Positions 10,046-43,754 of a stretch of 64,000 nucleotides of DNA are shown piece by piece. The DNA comes from Eledone cirrhosa (taxonomy: Eukaryota), in the NCBI GenBank assembly GCA_964016885.1, contig OZ024751.1, positions 20,956,001-21,020,000 on the forward strand, written 5' to 3'. The position numbers and the translations under genes are program-made. The notes under the pieces were generated by a model. The model made no database searches, was not told where the DNA came from, and saw only the letters and a program-made list of their open reading frames with translations. How positions within the stretch are numbered: the first letter of the stretch is position 1; each line of letters begins with the position of its first letter.

Positions 10046-12671
10046 CCCTTTAGCATTTAAACCGGCCATACCGGCCAGAATTCTCTCACCTCTTTCTGTT
10101 CAAACTGGGCGTTACTAGCTACTCATACTTATCTCATAGATTCAATATTATGAGATAATTATGTGAGGTGAAGTCTTTACTGTGAAATACAATAGTATAT
10201 GTAGAGTAATGTAAATGTTATGTGAGATATTATGTAAGGTCAAGCCTTTACTGTGAAATACAATAGTATATATAAAGTAATGTAAATGTTATGTGAGATA
10301 TTATTTGAGGTAAAGCCTTTACTGTGAAATACAATAGTATATATAAAGTAATGTAAATGTTATGTGAGATATTATTTGAGGTAAAGCCTTTACTGTGAAA
10401 ATACAATAGTATATATAGAGTAATGTAAATGTAATGTGAGGTATTATGTGAGGTAAAGTCTTTACTGTGAAAATACAATAGTATATATAAAGTAGTGTAA
10501 ATGTTATGTGAGATATTATGTAAGGTAAAGCCTTTACTGTGAAAATACAATAGTATATATAAAGTAATGTAAATGTTATGTGAGATATTATTTGAGGTAA
10601 AGCCTTTACTGTGAAAATACAATAGTATATATAGAGTAATGTAAATGTTATGTGAGGTATTATGTGAGGTAAAGTCTTTACTGTGAAAATACAATAGTAT
10701 ATATAAAGTAGTGTAAATGTTATGTGAGATATTATGTAAGGTAAAGCCTTTACTGTGAAAATACAATAGTATATATAGAGTAATGTAAATGTAATGTGAG
10801 GTATTAATTGAGGTAAAGTCTTTACTGTGAAAATACAATAGTATATATAAAGTAGTGTAAATGTTATGTGAGATATTATGTAAGGTAAAGCCTTTACTGT
10901 GAAAATACAATAGTATATATAGAGTAATGTAAATGTTATGTGAGATATGATGTAAGGTAAAGCTTTTACTGTGAAAATACAATAGTATATATAAAGTAGT
11001 GTAAATGTTATGTGAGATATTATGTAAGGTAAAGCCTTTACTGTGAAAATACAATAGTATATATAGAGTAATGTAAATGTTATGTGAGATATTATGTAAG
11101 GTCAAGCCTTTACTGTGAAAATACAATAGTATATATAGAGTAGTGTAAATGTTATGTGAGATAATATGTAAGGTCAAGCCTTTACTGTGAAAATACAATA
11201 GTATATATAGAGTAGTGTAAATGTTATGTGAGATATTATTTGAGGTCAAGCCTTTACTGTGAAAATACAATAGTATATATAAAGTAGTGTAAATGTTATG
11301 TGAGATATTATGTAAGGTCAAGCCTTTACTGTGAAAATACAATAGTATATATAAAGTAGTGTAAATGTTATGTGAGATATTATGTAAGGTAAAGCCTTTA
11401 CTGTGAAAATACAATAGTATATATAAAGTAGTGTAAATGTTATGTGAGATATTATGTAAGGTCAAGCCTTTACTGTGAAAATACAATAGTATATATAAAG
11501 TAGTGTAAATGTTATGTGAGATATTATGTAAGGTAAAGCCTTTACTGTGAAAATACAATAGTATATATAGAGTAATGTAAATGTTATGTGAGATATTATG
11601 TAAGGTCAAGCCTTTACTGTGAAAATACAATAGTATATATAGAGTAGTGTAAATATTATGTGAGATAATATGTAAGGTCAAGCCTTTACTGTGAAAATAC
11701 AATAGTATATATAGAGTAATGTAAATGTTATGTGAGATATTATGTAAGGTCAAGCCTTTACTGTGAAAATACAATAGTATATATAGAGTAGTGTAAATGT
11801 TATGTGAGATATTACTTGAGGTCAAGCCTTTACTGTGAAAATACAATAGTATATATAAAGTAGTGTAAATGTTATGTGAGATATTATGTAAGGTCAAGCC
11901 TTTACTGTGAAAATACAATAGTATATATAAAGTAGTGTAAATGTTATGTGAGATATTATGTAAGGTAAAGCCTTTATTGTGAAAATACAATAGTATATAT
12001 AAAGTAGTGTAAATGTTATGTGAGATATTATGTAAGGTAAAGCCTTTACTGTGAAAATACAATAGTATATATAAAGTAGTGTAAATGTTATGTGAGATAT
12101 TATGTAAGGTCAAGCCTTTACTGTGAAAATACAATAGTATATGTAAAGTAATGTAAATGTTATATGAGATATTATGTGAGGTAAAGACTTTACTGTGAAA
12201 ATACAATAGTATATATAGAGTAGTGTAAATGTTATGTGAGATATTATGTAAGGTAAAGCCTTTACTGTGAAAATACAATAGTATATGTAAAGTAATGTAA
12301 ATGTTATATGAGATATTATGTGAGATAAAGCCTTTACTGTGAAAATACAATAGTATATATAGAGTAGTGTAAATGTTATGTGAGATATTATGTAAGGTAA
12401 AGCCTTTACTGTGAAAATACAATAGTATATGTAAAGTAATGTAAATGTTATATGAGATATTATGTGAGGTAAAGCCTTTACTCTGAAAATACAATAGTAT
12501 ATATAGAGTAGTGTAAATGTTATGTGAGATATTATGTAAGGTAAAGCCTTTACTGTGAAAATACAATAGTATATGTAAAGTAATGTAAATGTTATATGAG
12601 ATATTATGTAAGGTAAAGCCTTTACTGTGAAAATACAATAGTATATATAGAGTAATGTGAATGCTAAAGGG
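10046..12671. mobile_element. piggyBac-type non-autonomous element
   Basis: TTAA(10042-10045)-CCCTTTAGCATT ... AATGCTAAAGGG-TTAA(12672-12675): 12-bp TIR plus TTAA TSD. Confidence 0.8.
10150..12660. repeat. 72-bp minisatellite, ~35 copies
   Basis: Unit GCCTTTACTGTGAAAATACAATAGTATATATAAAGTAGTGTAAATGTTATGTGAGATATTATGTAAGGTAAA; 24-aa periodicity in the ORF track. Confidence 0.95.
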
Positions 12672-14693: not shown

Positions 14694-14785
<92 letters not shown>

Positions 14786-14878
14786 ACGGTTGGAGGGCCA
14801 CTGATGAAGGACTTACTTTTTCATATGTAACCCATTTGCAACGCCGCAGCTCCATTATTATCATATATATATATATAA

Positions 14879-14938
<60 letters not shown>

Positions 14939-15004
14939 GGAGGGCTGTGTGGTTACTGATAACGGGTGTTAGAAGGTAAGGAGACACAAACAAGAAGTGG
15001 ACAG

Positions 15005-15059
15005 GCAGCCTTCGTCAGTAGTTAACGGTCACGGCTCTTTCTTCGCATTATTAACTATA

Positions 15060-15060
<1 letters not shown>
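15005..15060 (-). ncRNA. Permuted-order hammerhead-like motif, 5'-truncated
   Basis: Minus strand GTA-TAGTTAA-TAATGCGAA-GAAA...TTAACTA-CTGACGA-AGG; stem III partner not evident. Confidence 0.5.
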
Positions 15061-15126
<66 letters not shown>

Positions 15127-21762: not shown

Positions 21763-21767
<5 letters not shown>

Positions 21768-21930
21768 AACAAGTAAGACCCCGACGGCTAATTCTGTCAG
21801 AATTAGCCGTCGAAACGGCTTGAGCTCAGCCGTCGGGGTCTTACTTGTTCCTATTACCCACTCTACTACCCTAAGTATTGAGTACTTTGGTGCGTTATGG
21901 TCCACCTGGTTCCTTACCACTTTTCCTTCG

Positions 21931-21932
<2 letters not shown>
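21763..21932 (+). mobile_element. Hairpin-headed (TA)n-inserted family (also ~4000-4048, 31214-31546, 31790-31841)
   Basis: ATAGGAACAAGTAAGACCCCGACGGCT / AGCCGTCGGGGTCTTACTTGTTCCTAT, followed by ACTC...TTGAGTACT. Confidence 0.7.
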
Positions 21933-21973
<41 letters not shown>

Positions 21974-22143
21974 GCCTACGTCCAATATACGCGGTTTTTC
22001 ACTGTTCGCGGATGCTCTAGAAACGTGACACCCGCGAATACCGGGGGACAACTGTATTTGCTTTTCCTTCTATGTTGTTTACTTGTCTCACTCGCTTTAC
22101 GCGATTCACTTGTCCCAGTAGCTTATTTTAGTTATCGCTCGCA

Positions 22144-22215
22144 CCAACCTGAGGTATCTGATTTTTAATGCGATGAAATACCAATGATGGTTGGCAAATC
22201 ACTGATGAGGGACTA
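22144..22215 (+). ncRNA. Non-circularly permuted hammerhead-like motif
   Basis: GGTATC(22153-58)-TGATTT...GAAA(22175)-TACC...AAATCA-CTGATGA(22202); extra helix CCAACC/GGTTGG. Confidence 0.65.
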
Positions 22216-22272
22216 ATTTTATAATATGTAACCCATGTGCAACCACGCAGTATTCCCCTTTCTTCCCATGTT

Positions 22273-22348
<76 letters not shown>

Positions 22349-37293: not shown

Positions 37294-40200
37294 AATATAG
37301 ACATAGAATATTCGAAAATATTCTGTATGTTTATAATAAACATTTTGAAGACCTAATCGCTATAGAATAGAATACGTCACGTATTACAATTAGATTTTCG
37401 ATAAAAGCAAGGGAAGTAATCTACGCGTTTCATTCTTGTTAGAAATCTTCAGGACTACATATCCAGTGCTTTTATTAGGTCTTCAAAATGTTTATTATAA
37501 ACATACAGAATATTTTCGAATATTCTATGTCTATATTCACATATATATCACTATTTCAGAGCATTTATTCCAATTTCTAATTTCTGCCGGACCGGCAACC
37601 GCTCTTTCAAACCAGTTCCTGTACACAGCTAAGTATTCTATAAGTCTCTAGCTGTGTCATTCTCGATAAAAGCACTGGATATGTAGTCCTGAAGATTTCT
37701 AACAAGAATGAAACGCGTAGATTACTTCCCTTGCTTTTATCGAGAATCTAATTGTAATACGTGACGTATTCTATTCTATAGCGATTAGGTCTTCAAAATG
37801 CTTATTATAAACATACAGAATATTTTCGAATATTCTATGTCTATATTCACATATATATCGCTATTTCAGAGCATTTATTCCAATTTCTAATTTCTGCCGG
37901 ACCGGCAACCGCTCTTTCAAACCAGTTCCTGTACACAGCTAAGTATTCTATAAGTCTCTAGCTGTGTCATTCTCGATAAAAGCACTGGATATGTAGTCCT
38001 GAAGATTTCTAACAAGAATGAAACGCGTAGATTACTTCCCTTGCTTTTATCGAGAATCTAATTGTAATACGTGACGTATTCTATTCTATAGCGATTAGGT
38101 CTTCAAAATGCTTATTATAAACATACAGAATATTTTCGAATATTCTATGTCTATATTCACATATATATCGCTATTTCAGAGCATTTATTCCAATTTCTAA
38201 TTTCTGCCGGACCGGCAACCGCTCTTTCAAACCAGTTCCTGTACACAGCTAAGTATTCTATAAGTCTCTAGCTGTGTCATTCTCGATAAAAGCACTGGAT
38301 ATGTAGTCCTGAAGATTTCTAACAAGAATGAAACGCGTAGATTACTTCCCTTGCTTTTATCGAGAATCTAATTGTAATACGTGACGTATTCTATTCTATA
38401 GCGATTAGGTCTTCAAAATGTTTATTATAAACATACAGAATATTTTCGAATATTCTATGTCTATATTCACATATATATCGCTATTTCAGAGCATTTATTC
38501 CAATTATATATATATATATATATTGGAATAAATGCTCTGAAATAGCGATATATATGTGAATATAGACATAGAATATTCGAAAATATTCTGTATGTTTATA
38601 ATAAACATTTTGAAGACCTAATCGCTATAGAATAGAATACGTCACGTATTACAATTAGATTCTCGATAAAAGCAAGGGAAGTAAGTCTACGCGTTTCATT
38701 CTTGTTAGAATTCATCAGGACTACATATCCAGTGCTTTTATCGAGAATGACACAGCTAGAGACTTATAGAATACTTAGCTGTGTACAGGAACTGGTTTGA
38801 AAGAGCGGTTGCCGGTCCGGCAGAAATTAGAAATTGGAATAAATGCTCTGAAATAGCGATATATATGTGAATATAGACATAGAATATTCGAAAATATTCT
38901 GTATGTTTATAATAAACATTTTGAAGACCTAATCGCTATAGAATAGAATACGTCACGTATTACAATTAGATTCTCGATAAAAGCAAGGGAAGTAAGTCTA
39001 CGCGTTTCATTCTTGTTAGAATTCATCAGGACTACATATCCAGTGCTTTTATCGAGAATGACACAGCTAGAGACTTATAGAATACTTAGCTGTGTACAGG
39101 AACTGGTTTGAAAGAGCGGTTGCCGGTCCGGCAGAAATTAGAAATTGGAATAAATGCTCTGAAATAGCGATATATATGTGAATATAGACATAGAATATTC
39201 GAAAATATTCTGTATGTTTATAATAAACATTTTGAAGACCTAATCGCTATAGAATAGAATACGTCACGTATTACAATTAGATTCTCGATAAAAGCAAGGG
39301 AAGTAAGTCTACGCGTTTCATTCTTGTTAGAATTCATCAGGACTACATATCCAGTGCTTTTATCGAGAATGACACAGCTAGAGACTTATAGAATACTTAG
39401 CTGTGTACAGGAACTGGTTTGAAAGAGCGGTTGCCGGTCCGGCAGAAATTAGAAATTGGAATAAATGCTCTGAAATAGCGATATATATGTGAATATAGAC
39501 ATAGAATATTCGAAAATATTCTGTATGTTTATAATAAACATTTTGAAGACCTAATCGCTATAGAATAGAATACGTCACGTATTACAATTAGATTCTCGAT
39601 AAAAGCAAGGGAAGTAAGTCTACGCGTTTCATTCTTGTTAGAATTCATCAGGACTACATATCCAGTGCTTTTATCGAGAATGACACAGCTAGAGACTTAT
39701 AGAATACTTAGCTGTGTACAGGAACTGGTTTGAAAGAGCGGTTGCCGGTCCGGCAGAAATTTCTGCCGGACCGGCAACCGCTCTTTCAAACCAGTTCCTG
39801 TACACAGCTAAGTATTCTATAAGTCTCTAGCTGTGTCATTCTCGATAAAAGCACTGGATATGTAGTCCTGATGAATTCTAACAAGAATGAAACGCGTAGA
39901 CTTACTTCCCTTGCTTTTATCGAGAATCTAATTGTAATACGTGACGTATTCTATTCTATAGCGATTAGGTCTTCAAAATGTTTATTATAAACATACAGAA
40001 TATTTTCGAATATTCTATGTCTATATTCACATATATATCGCTATTTCAGAGCATTTATTCCAATTTCTAATTTCTGCCGGACCGGCAACCGCTCTTTCAA
40101 ACCAGTTCCTGTACACAGCTAAGTATTCTATAAGTCTCTAGCTGTGTCATTCTCGATAAAAGCACTGGATATGTAGTCCTGATGAATTCTAACAAGAATG

Positions 40201-40963
40201 AAACGCGTAGACTTACTTCCCTTGCTTTTATCGAGAATCTAATTGTAATACGTGACGTATTCTATTCTATAGCGATTAGGTCTTCAAAATGTTTATTATA
40301 AACATACAGAATATTTTCGAATATTCTATGTCTATATTCACATATATATCGCTATTTCAGAGCATTTATTCCAATTTCTAATTTCTGCCGGACCGGCAAC
40401 CGCTCTTTCAAACCAGTTCCTGTACACAGCTAAGTATTCTATAAGTCTCTAGCTGTGTCATTCTCGATAAAAGCACTGGATATGTAGTCCTGATGAATTC
40501 TAACAAGAATGAAACGCGTAGACTTACTTCCCTTGCTTTTATCGAGAATCTAATTGTAATACGTGACGTATTCTATTCTATAGCGATTAGGTCTTCAAAA
40601 TGTTTATTATAAACATACAGAATATTTTCGAATATTCTATGTCTATATTCACATATATATCGCTATTTCAGAGCATTTATTCCAATTTCTAATTTCTGCC
40701 GGACCGGCAACCGCTCTTTCAAACCAGTTCCTGTACACAGCTAAGTATTCTATAAGTCTCTAGCTGTGTCATTCTCGATAAAAGCACTGGATATGTAGTC
40801 CTGATGAATTCTAACAAGAATGAAACGCGTAGACTTACTTCCCTTGCTTTTATCGAGAATCTAATTGTAATACGTGACGTATTCTATTCTATAGCGATTA
40901 GGTCTTCAAAATGTTTATTATAAACATACAGAATATTTTCGAATATTCTATGTCTATATTCAC
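37291..40963. mobile_element. Retrozyme-like / tandem pLTR array: 310-311-bp monomers, each with a type I hammerhead, in four alternating-orientation blocks
   Basis: HHR cores on + at 37689, 37999, 38309 (period 310) and 39868, 40179, 40490, 40801 (period 311); on - at 37452, 38718, 39029, 39340, 39651; bounded by (TA)n. Confidence 0.85.
39862..39905 (+). ncRNA. Minimal type I HHR of the array (representative copy)
   Basis: GTAGTC-CTGATGA-ATTCT-AACA-AGAAT-GAAA-CGCG-TA-GACTTAC. Confidence 0.85.
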
Positions 40964-41000
<37 letters not shown>

Positions 41001-43487: not shown

Positions 43488-43535
<48 letters not shown>

Positions 43536-43584
43536 TGATAATAATGGAGCTGCGGCGTTGCAAATGGGTTACATATGAAAAAGT

Positions 43585-43656
43585 AAGTCCTTCATCAGTG
43601 GCCTTCCAACCGTCCTAGGCATTTCATCACTTTAAAGGCCATATACCTCAGGTTGG
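43585..43656 (-). ncRNA. Non-circularly permuted hammerhead-like motif (truncated sister copy 14782-14862, +)
   Basis: Minus strand CCAACC-TGA-GGTATA-TGGCCTT-TAAAGTGAT-GAAA-TGCC-TAGGAC-GGTTGG-AAGGCCA-CTGATGA-AGG. Confidence 0.7.
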
Positions 43657-43754
43657 TGCGAACAACGGCTAAAAAAAGTCGTTGGGACACGTAAATAAAG
43701 GGGACGCTGGGGTGAACAAACAAAATGGTTTAAGCAAACACACACACACACACG

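Follow-up and report, generated by a model that had tools for sequence, protein, structure and literature searches.

A hammerhead-like motif with core blocks in non-circular order and a predicted kink-turn at the 3' ends of (TA)n-inserting retroelements of Eledone cirrhosa

Introduction

The window analysed here is a stretch of 64,000 nucleotides from Eledone cirrhosa (positions 20956001-21020000 of contig OZ024751.1), in a microsatellite-rich genome of 3.0 Gb. It contains repeats that carry the conserved strands of a hammerhead ribozyme, namely the cleavage block (S), the GAAA block (G), and the CUGAnGA block (C). Hammerheads of types I, II, and III are circular permutations of S-C-G, whereas here the order within each unit is S-G-C. 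The question raised by this locus is whether a chain ordered in this way could fold into a single self-cleaving unit, and which elements carry it.

One non-circular permutation of this order, type SGC, has been described, and it was found only in metatranscriptomes (HRIMA-1 and SGC variants; Eckert et al. 2023, PMC10085705). The SGC and CSG forms cleave at 0.004 to 0.19 per min, and none comes from a eukaryotic genome; in SGC forms, the ends of stem III and of the interaction helix are sometimes directly joined though they lie far apart in the crystal structure (PMC10085705). An initial interpretation of the window from its letters (the sequence-only reading) had suspected that the class might already be reported from other animals. 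Type SGC is indeed published, but from metatranscriptomes, and no report from an animal genome was found. In the literature covered, mostly open papers, the terms type SGC and type CSG are used only by PMC10085705, with no such ribozymes in animal genomes and no natural hammerhead containing a kink-turn.

Results

Copies in the window

The S-G-C order had been claimed for three copies. It is present in the full copies at 22153 (+) and 43647 (-), in which cleavage block, GAAA block, and CUGAUGA block follow one another, and both contain the hammerhead core (CUGAnGA, GAAA, and UH, with H not G). The third, at 15060 (-), is a real member of the family but a dead fragment, as (TA)n interrupts its stem III and the 3' strand of that stem is lost; its family F3 relatives elsewhere in the genome have intact stems. 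A search with nhmmer, using a 26-sequence alignment as the query, retrieved four places in the window, these being the two full copies, the damaged one at 15063-15003, and a 3' half at 14784. Stems I and III and a CCAACC/GGUUGG helix pair in both full copies, with predicted cut sites 3' of C22158 and at 43642/43641. The last helix had been regarded as an extra one; it pairs as described, but it is not separate and forms the non-canonical arm of a predicted kink-turn. The expectation that standard descriptors would miss the family was borne out: the Rfam scan of the window gave no hammerhead family among the 150 of 289 matches listed, only low-complexity miRNA-like noise, and the sequences lack what the published SGC descriptor demands (see Discussion). 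The features are as follows.

22057-22276 (+): family F1 copy, 5'-truncated, of a retroelement with tandem monomers of ~535 bp, ending at (TA)n; 97% identity to a tandem monomer of locus L028
22112-22115 (+): 5' strand of P0, GUCC, pairing with 22210-22213 and closing the whole motif; 83.7% paired, double changes in 2 of 4 pairs, recovered by RNAfold
22116-22137 (+): Pa hairpin, 7 bp with an 8-nt loop, an arm of the predicted four-way junction that is missing from family F9; 92.9% paired, double changes in 4 of 7 pairs
22139-22143 (+): 5' strand of P2, UCGCA, the distal part of predicted stem II, pairing with 22169-22173; 91.5% paired, double changes in 3 of 5 pairs, best pair at rank 21 of 2,926
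22144-22152 (+): 5' strand of the non-canonical helix and non-bulged strand of the predicted kink-turn, CCAAC CUGA, with 2n G22151 and 1n A22152; covariation ranks 1, 3, 4, 5, and 7, and 1n A in 173 of 182 unconstrained copies
22153-22164 (+): block S, with stem III 5' strand GGUA, U16.1 at 22157, H17 C22158 (predicted cut 3' of it), and stem I 5' strand UGAUUU; stem I at covariation ranks 2 and 6
22165-22182 (+): U-UAA linker and block G, with stem II 3' strand UGCGA, position 11.1 U22174, GAAA at 22175-22178, and stem III 3' strand UACC; assigned from sequence and covariation
22183-22194 (+): bulged strand of the predicted kink-turn, with 3-nt bulge AAU, 1b G22186, and 2b A22187, then the 3' strand of the non-canonical helix; genome-wide, 1b is other than G in only 500 matches versus 17,306 with GA
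22196-22213 (+): block C, with stem I 3' strand AAAUCA, CUGAUGA at 22202-22208, position 10.1 G22209, and P0 3' strand GGAC; assigned from sequence and helix alignment
43523-43737 (-): second full copy, family F2, motif at 43688-43587, predicted cut at 43642/43641; five other loci match it at 100% over 161 bases
14942-15063 (-): third copy, family F3, ending inside stem III, with a damaged GAAA block and predicted to be dead; nhmmer E 1.8e-8
14782-14876 (+): fourth copy, 3' half only, family F2, between (TA)n tracts; sequence and nhmmer match

Other repeats share the window. Arrays of 310/311-bp units, direct and inverted, occupy 37474-40971 and carry a type I hammerhead in each unit (CUGAUGA or CUGAAGA, a 14-nt stem II hairpin, and a CGCG stem III), as in ordinary retrozymes. 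Further canonical type I candidates lie in repeats at 1660, 14596, 21611, 46518, and 63275 (+), several with a palindromic stem III resembling (TA)n. At 21766-21931 lies a common repeat, inserted in (TA)n and containing a long inverted repeat, that shows two blocks of what looks like a type I hammerhead, GAAA and cleavage, and has no CUGAnGA. It is likely the inverted, truncated end of another Penelope-like family, and it recurs beside many loci (L005, L032, L034, and L037). A 72-bp minisatellite of ~35 copies at 94% identity spans 10151-12663.

Abundance and subfamilies in the genome

Three disjoint patterns returned 3,702, 13,604, and 3,837 matches genome-wide, 21,143 together, against 0, 1, and 0 for the reversed-pattern controls; the first two of them fix just the linker, GAAA, GA after a 7-nt gap, and CUGAnGA. 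Two further patterns gave 593 and 500 matches (controls 3 and 8), mostly point mutants plus additional families. Average-linkage clustering of 277 copies produced 24 groups of two or more. Families F1 and F2 are young, their top matches being 98-100% identical, and families F9 and F12 are old. Two sequencing runs contained many variant contigs only, which have no bearing on expression. A pattern scan of metagenomes yielded 78 matches, of which 3 passed a loose stem filter and 0 had the full layout, and these are read as chance. At locus L353 (C1:81545000-81554900), a long head-to-tail array of ~515-bp monomers of a UGCAA subfamily runs on beyond 81,559,000, and its repeating pattern of variant units suggests higher-order duplication.

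Covariation and the predicted fold

From 5' to 3', the predicted layout comprises P0, the Pa hairpin, P2, one strand of the non-canonical helix, one strand of the kink-turn, block S, the U-UAA linker, and block G; the 3' part continues with the 3-nt bulge, GA, the partner of the non-canonical strand, one base, block C, and the partner of P0. Covariation was assessed on the 312 copies with modal spacing less 35 that are 5' truncated (a sequence-only filter), and the resulting 277 were reduced to 149 non-redundant cores, picked without regard to pairing. In an APC-corrected G-test over 2,926 column pairs, the top 8 were all predicted pairs, with four in the non-canonical helix, two in stem I, the 4n-4b pair, and one in stem III. 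Against a home-made tree-based null (not R-scape), 2 pairs reached an E of <0.05 and 4 an E of <=0.1, and no P2 or stem III pair was significant alone in these 149 cores. Stem I, for which covariation had been proposed from three copies, holds ranks 2 and 6, the former with an E of <0.05. The genome-wide collection and covariation check that the sequence-only reading had called for agreed with it on stem I.

A MAFFT alignment of 26 copies, hand-picked as well preserved and so biased upward in its pairing figures, retained seven helices, with 92.8% of cells paired and double changes in 23 of 34 pairs. Double changes filled 152 cells versus 52 in shuffles, none of 500 shuffles reached the observed value, and slid controls gave 30-48%. 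Within this alignment, stem I is 96.8% paired with double changes in 5 of 6 pairs, and stem III is 96.2% paired with double changes in 3 of 5. The spacing from GAAA to CUGA is 23 nt in 281 of 307 copies. RNAfold, which does not handle pseudoknots, folds the 43647 (-) copy differently and gives z-scores of -0.1 to -1.9, energies that are uninformative for a pseudoknotted fold. Individual copies decay, and every element is kept in 180 of 277, as might be found for a neutral relic or a chance arrangement within the repeat; that explanation is largely refuted by the covariation, and it is barely credible given that subfamilies differ by compensatory changes and that other phyla share the layout. 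The predicted fold is very probably real. It likely corresponds to a single unit, in which, judging from these alignments, the kink-turn would bend an extended stem III back and an upstream strand would rebuild stem II.

A predicted stem II and four-way junction

Stem II had been judged not convincingly formed in the sequence-only reading, a view that probably does not survive, as the upstream strand of P2 would supply it (91.5% paired in the 26-copy alignment). The linker before GAAA is conserved, as that reading held, but most of it is the predicted 3' strand of stem II, with a partner upstream of the segments then compared. The strand 3' of CUGAnGA pairs upstream as P0 instead of with block G. 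A canonical stem II between blocks C and G was ruled out, since two or more contiguous pairs between these blocks form in 16 of the 277 copies.

P2 switches both sides between families (U-A, A-U, and G-C). On internal branches it shows 20 pair-breaking single changes versus 13 pair-keeping and 13 restoring ones, a balance due in part to two patterns having selected P2 mutants. In family F3 both helices begin at the core and make a perfect four-way junction. In this family, as in the Naiads of Octopus, Acropora, and the ostracod, P2 reaches GAAA, P0 starts at A9 or immediately beside it, and no pair between the C and G blocks is left. The 10.1-11.1 pair is found in 212 of 277 copies, or 229 if a linker base is taken as the partner. 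It is 65% paired in the 26-copy alignment, in U-A, A-U, C-G, and U-G forms, and is the weakest point of the fold. In the proposed arrangement, the chain would enter and leave at the four-way junction inside stem II, and stems I and II would meet the far helix of the kink-turn at a distal three-way junction, an equivalent of the "interaction helix" in the SGC forms already published.

A predicted kink-turn in stem III

Stem III and the non-canonical helix are separated by a 3-nt bulge plus GA, facing (G/U)A, which is the pattern of a kink-turn. The 1n A, 1b G, and 2b A are all kept in 241 of 277 copies, a sample enriched for 1b mutants and drawn with 1b/2b fixed in several patterns. Position 3b.3n is U.U in 144 of 277, which we take to be a box C/D-like combination. 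The pattern is described in the passages of PMC4382518 and PMC3985660 considered here, and the variation at 2n (G in 138 and U in 42 of the 182 unconstrained copies) is known for Kt-23 from the latter. According to the same passages of PMC4382518, box C/D and U4 kink-turns require protein for folding. A protein of the L7Ae family (15.5K/Snu13) may aid folding here, and the kink-turn would supply the bend that joins the far helix ends.

The scrambled order need not fold within one unit if the core assembles as a domain-swapped dimer, between two molecules or between adjacent monomers of an array. Minimal Penelope hammerheads act as dimers, many copies are tandem (including the L353 array), and covariation does not distinguish pairing in cis from pairing in trans. 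However, short linkers of fixed length (the 23 nt above) and a kink-turn are needed only for a self-folding unit, and stem III is not palindromic, unlike that of dimerising forms. The published SGC ribozymes, moreover, cut in cis at the analogous site (PMC10085705). The sequence-only reading had left "pseudoknotted or dimer-swapped" side by side; the pseudoknot stands, and the dimer swap is the weaker reading, one that we regard as quite improbable.

The carrier element and the search for an autonomous partner

The elements are units of 450-650 bp, single or tandem, with tandem spacings mostly of 445-645. Five monomers of 470-630 bp are 67-70% pyrimidine and non-coding (longest ATG-ORF, 32-131 amino acids) and contain no Pol III B-box. 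As circles they would mostly not be strongly self-paired, with 4 of the 5 within about 2 SD of shuffles. A (TA)n tract lies within 200 nt 3' of the site in 216 of 277 copies, in keeping with the (TA)n-targeting carrier proposed earlier. The 3' ends cluster by family ~60-140 nt beyond the site, the 5' ends are scattered, and an inverted partner occurs in 18 of 60 loci; a pattern of tandem and inverted insertion is described for Penelope-like elements in the parts of PMC8557442 considered.

Neither the ORFs near the 277 copies, with Pfam applied to 12 of them, nor the ~5 kb upstream of 20 divergent copies revealed an autonomous partner, the former giving one weak GIY-YIG match on the opposite strand. 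The Naiad reverse-transcriptase motif was absent from the 396 records scanned, the motif pattern of Octopus Naiads had 0 matches in the genome, and a pattern favouring short linkers gave matches dominated by family F8, with no partner. Penelope-like ORF remnants at L158:3-1025 and L161:97-869 (one with a weak GIY-YIG match) lie on the strand opposite nearby F9 copies and are probably unrelated neighbours.

Family F12 (L384 (-), L385, L404-L449, and L450-L473) has the same layout, with an 11-bp P0, and lies 200-300 nt past the end of a broken ORF. A protein-only search for this ORF gave 24 loci, with F12 remnants downstream in 15 (13 of 22 without the two seed loci; controls, 0 of 24). Its profile matches cover a zinc-knuckle region (weak zf-RVT) and a PD...ELTVPWE...PVEVGCRGF motif. 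Judged by these matches, the ORF is the C terminus of a decayed restriction-like-endonuclease (RLE) LINE with the motif in its 3' untranslated region; this LINE is presumably HERO-like. A homologue search with a 60-amino-acid fragment of it gave no match, but the profile search did find homologues, and viral contigs and plasmids gave no DNA context for them. As the F12 motif trails an RLE LINE, the module is not confined to Penelope-like elements.

Catalytic signature and predicted cleavage

Hammerheads follow the NUH rule, with cleavage 3' of H, where H is not G. Of the 182 copies from searches that left U16.1, H17, and 1n free, 181 retain U16.1; at position 17, 97 have A, 84 have C, 1 has U, and none has G. 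Position 17 changed 8 times on internal branches, and U16.1, 1.1, 2.1, 1n, and 2b never changed there. Taken from the alignment, this pattern is the NUH rule apparently acting between subfamilies. CUGAnGA and GAAA were fixed in most search patterns; families found by DNA similarity alone also keep the core.

In 312 of 332 cases, copies continue through the predicted cut site and reach more than 3 nt upstream of it, so the copied RNA was either uncut or resealed there. Ends of copies at the cut site show a weak excess at most (12 5' ends in 4 nt versus about 5 expected, several of them artefacts). Such read-through is compatible with circular templates and also with little cleavage. The same helices could then form a 3' recognition module that is mostly uncut or instantly resealed, a platform for a helper reverse transcriptase or for 15.5K with little net cleavage in cells. 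This would accord with the read-through, with a 10.1-11.1 pair that is frequently missing, with an RLE LINE that also ends in the motif, where removal of the 3' tail would seem harmful, and with the box C/D-like U.U at 3b.3n, as kink-turns of that kind need protein to fold (PMC4382518, in the passages considered). An H17 that is never G and a U16.1 kept in all subfamilies follow a cleavage rule, however, and not a binding rule, the consensuses of the families found by DNA similarity alone retain the core, and a circular template likewise predicts read-through. We consider a recognition module unlikely.

The reading preferred here, which we hold to be likely, is a complete S-G-C core at the 3' end of non-coding (TA)n-inserting retroelements that would act as a single self-cleaving unit, with the kink-turn, the rebuilt stem II, and the whole of the following mechanism. 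Read-through transcripts of tandem arrays would be cut 3' of H17 into monomers of 450-650 nt. The cut ends would stay together through four helices (P0, P2, the non-canonical helix, and stem III), which would, we propose, favour their re-ligation to form circles. A reverse transcriptase of the Naiad type, supplied in trans, would copy the circles across the sealed site into (TA)n.

Naiad elements

The Naiad group of Penelope-like elements was stated to lack canonical hammerheads, with eight "HHR_half_core" cases flagged (Craig et al. 2021, PMC8557442, in the sections considered). Consensus motifs were read by eye in part of the supplement of that paper. The 3' ends of Naiad_Obim and Naiad_Ovul (Octopus) contain P0, Pa, P2 (GACACC/GGUGUC), a kink-turn, stem III (AUGG/CCAU), UA, stem I, and CUGAUGA in S-G-C order, and their Pa loop is the same 8 nt as in family F1. 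Three Acropora records in that part have the four-way junction and the U-UAA linker, with a plain bulge instead of the kink-turn. The layout is also matched by single records in part 12 and part 19 (the latter ostracod, going by file order), and a record in part 25 matches it less clearly. Six passages in parts 13-16 of File S5, from nematodes judging by file order and including Naiad-2 and -3_Nbra, are of type CSG, with stems I-III fully paired, a type published from only two metagenomic sequences (PMC10085705). Three bivalve records in part 22 have no such motif at their 3' ends, so the motif is not universal among Naiads. Should it self-cleave, it would likely be the ribozyme that Naiads were reported to lack.

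Discussion

A wider proposal can be offered only tentatively, and we hold it to be somewhat doubtful as a whole. Non-circular hammerheads would be the normal ribozyme of many Naiads, with nematodes having the CSG form and cnidarians, cephalopods, and an ostracod the SGC form with a four-way junction. An RLE LINE and tens of thousands of retrozymes would have acquired them as well. In the elements studied here, the ribozyme would be a closed cage, opened inside stem II, locked by the kink-turn, and switched on by a host protein of the L7Ae family, making a protein-gated hammerhead for cutting and resealing RNA circles.

If the motif cleaves, non-circular permutations move from rare environmental contigs to animal genomes, in abundance, and the published assumption of an uninterruptible CUGAnGA block is broken. 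Cleavage would also give a concrete answer to the geometry problem of Eckert et al., namely how stem III and the interaction helix can meet at their far ends, and it would explain the "missing" hammerheads of Naiads, with counts from type I-III descriptors overlooking a whole class. A kink-turn hammerhead with thousands of variants would further be a scaffold for protein-responsive switches and RNA circularisation.

Among known systems, type SGC (PMC10085705) is alike in its S-G-C order, all core letters, a short linker between stems I and II, and a helix joining the distal ends of these stems. Stem II of the published forms lies between blocks C and G, whereas here an upstream strand would complete it, and the host is an animal genome. 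The joining helix here is continuous with stem III through the predicted kink-turn, and its 5' strand derives from upstream and not from the 3' end as in published SGC. The topology would be that of Eckert's SGC if its interaction helix were joined by the 3' end to stem III and the chain opened anew within stem II. Published SGC forms have an uninterrupted block C, which is lacking here and places the motif outside the published alignments, though it would work like SGC. In the passages of the PMC10085705 supplement considered, the descriptor demands CGAAA, CUGAUGAG, and at least 2 bp in stem II, and would thus miss the motifs of this genome.

Non-LTR retrozymes, in the parts of PMC7229834 and bioRxiv 10.64898/2026.07.22.740005 considered, are alike in their non-coding tandem monomers, one hammerhead per unit, dispersal in animal genomes, and link to Penelope-like elements. 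They carry type I hammerheads in units of ~150-450 bp, whereas the elements here have the SGC order in pyrimidine-rich units of 450-650 bp and are known from DNA alone. The kink-turns Kt-7, Kt-23, box C/D, and U4 likewise have a canonical and a non-canonical helix on either side of a 3-nt bulge and the G.A and A.G (or A.U) pairs that come after it; the predicted one here differs in its placement in stem III of a natural hammerhead, of which there is none in the passages of the Eckert supplement considered. Naiad elements, in the same sections of PMC8557442, have in common the (TA)n target, 5' truncation, tandem and inverted copies, and, in Octopus, the layout of the 3' end. In contrast to Naiads, the elements of the window encode no protein, no Naiad ORF is linked to the elements in the loci examined, and F12 follows an RLE LINE.
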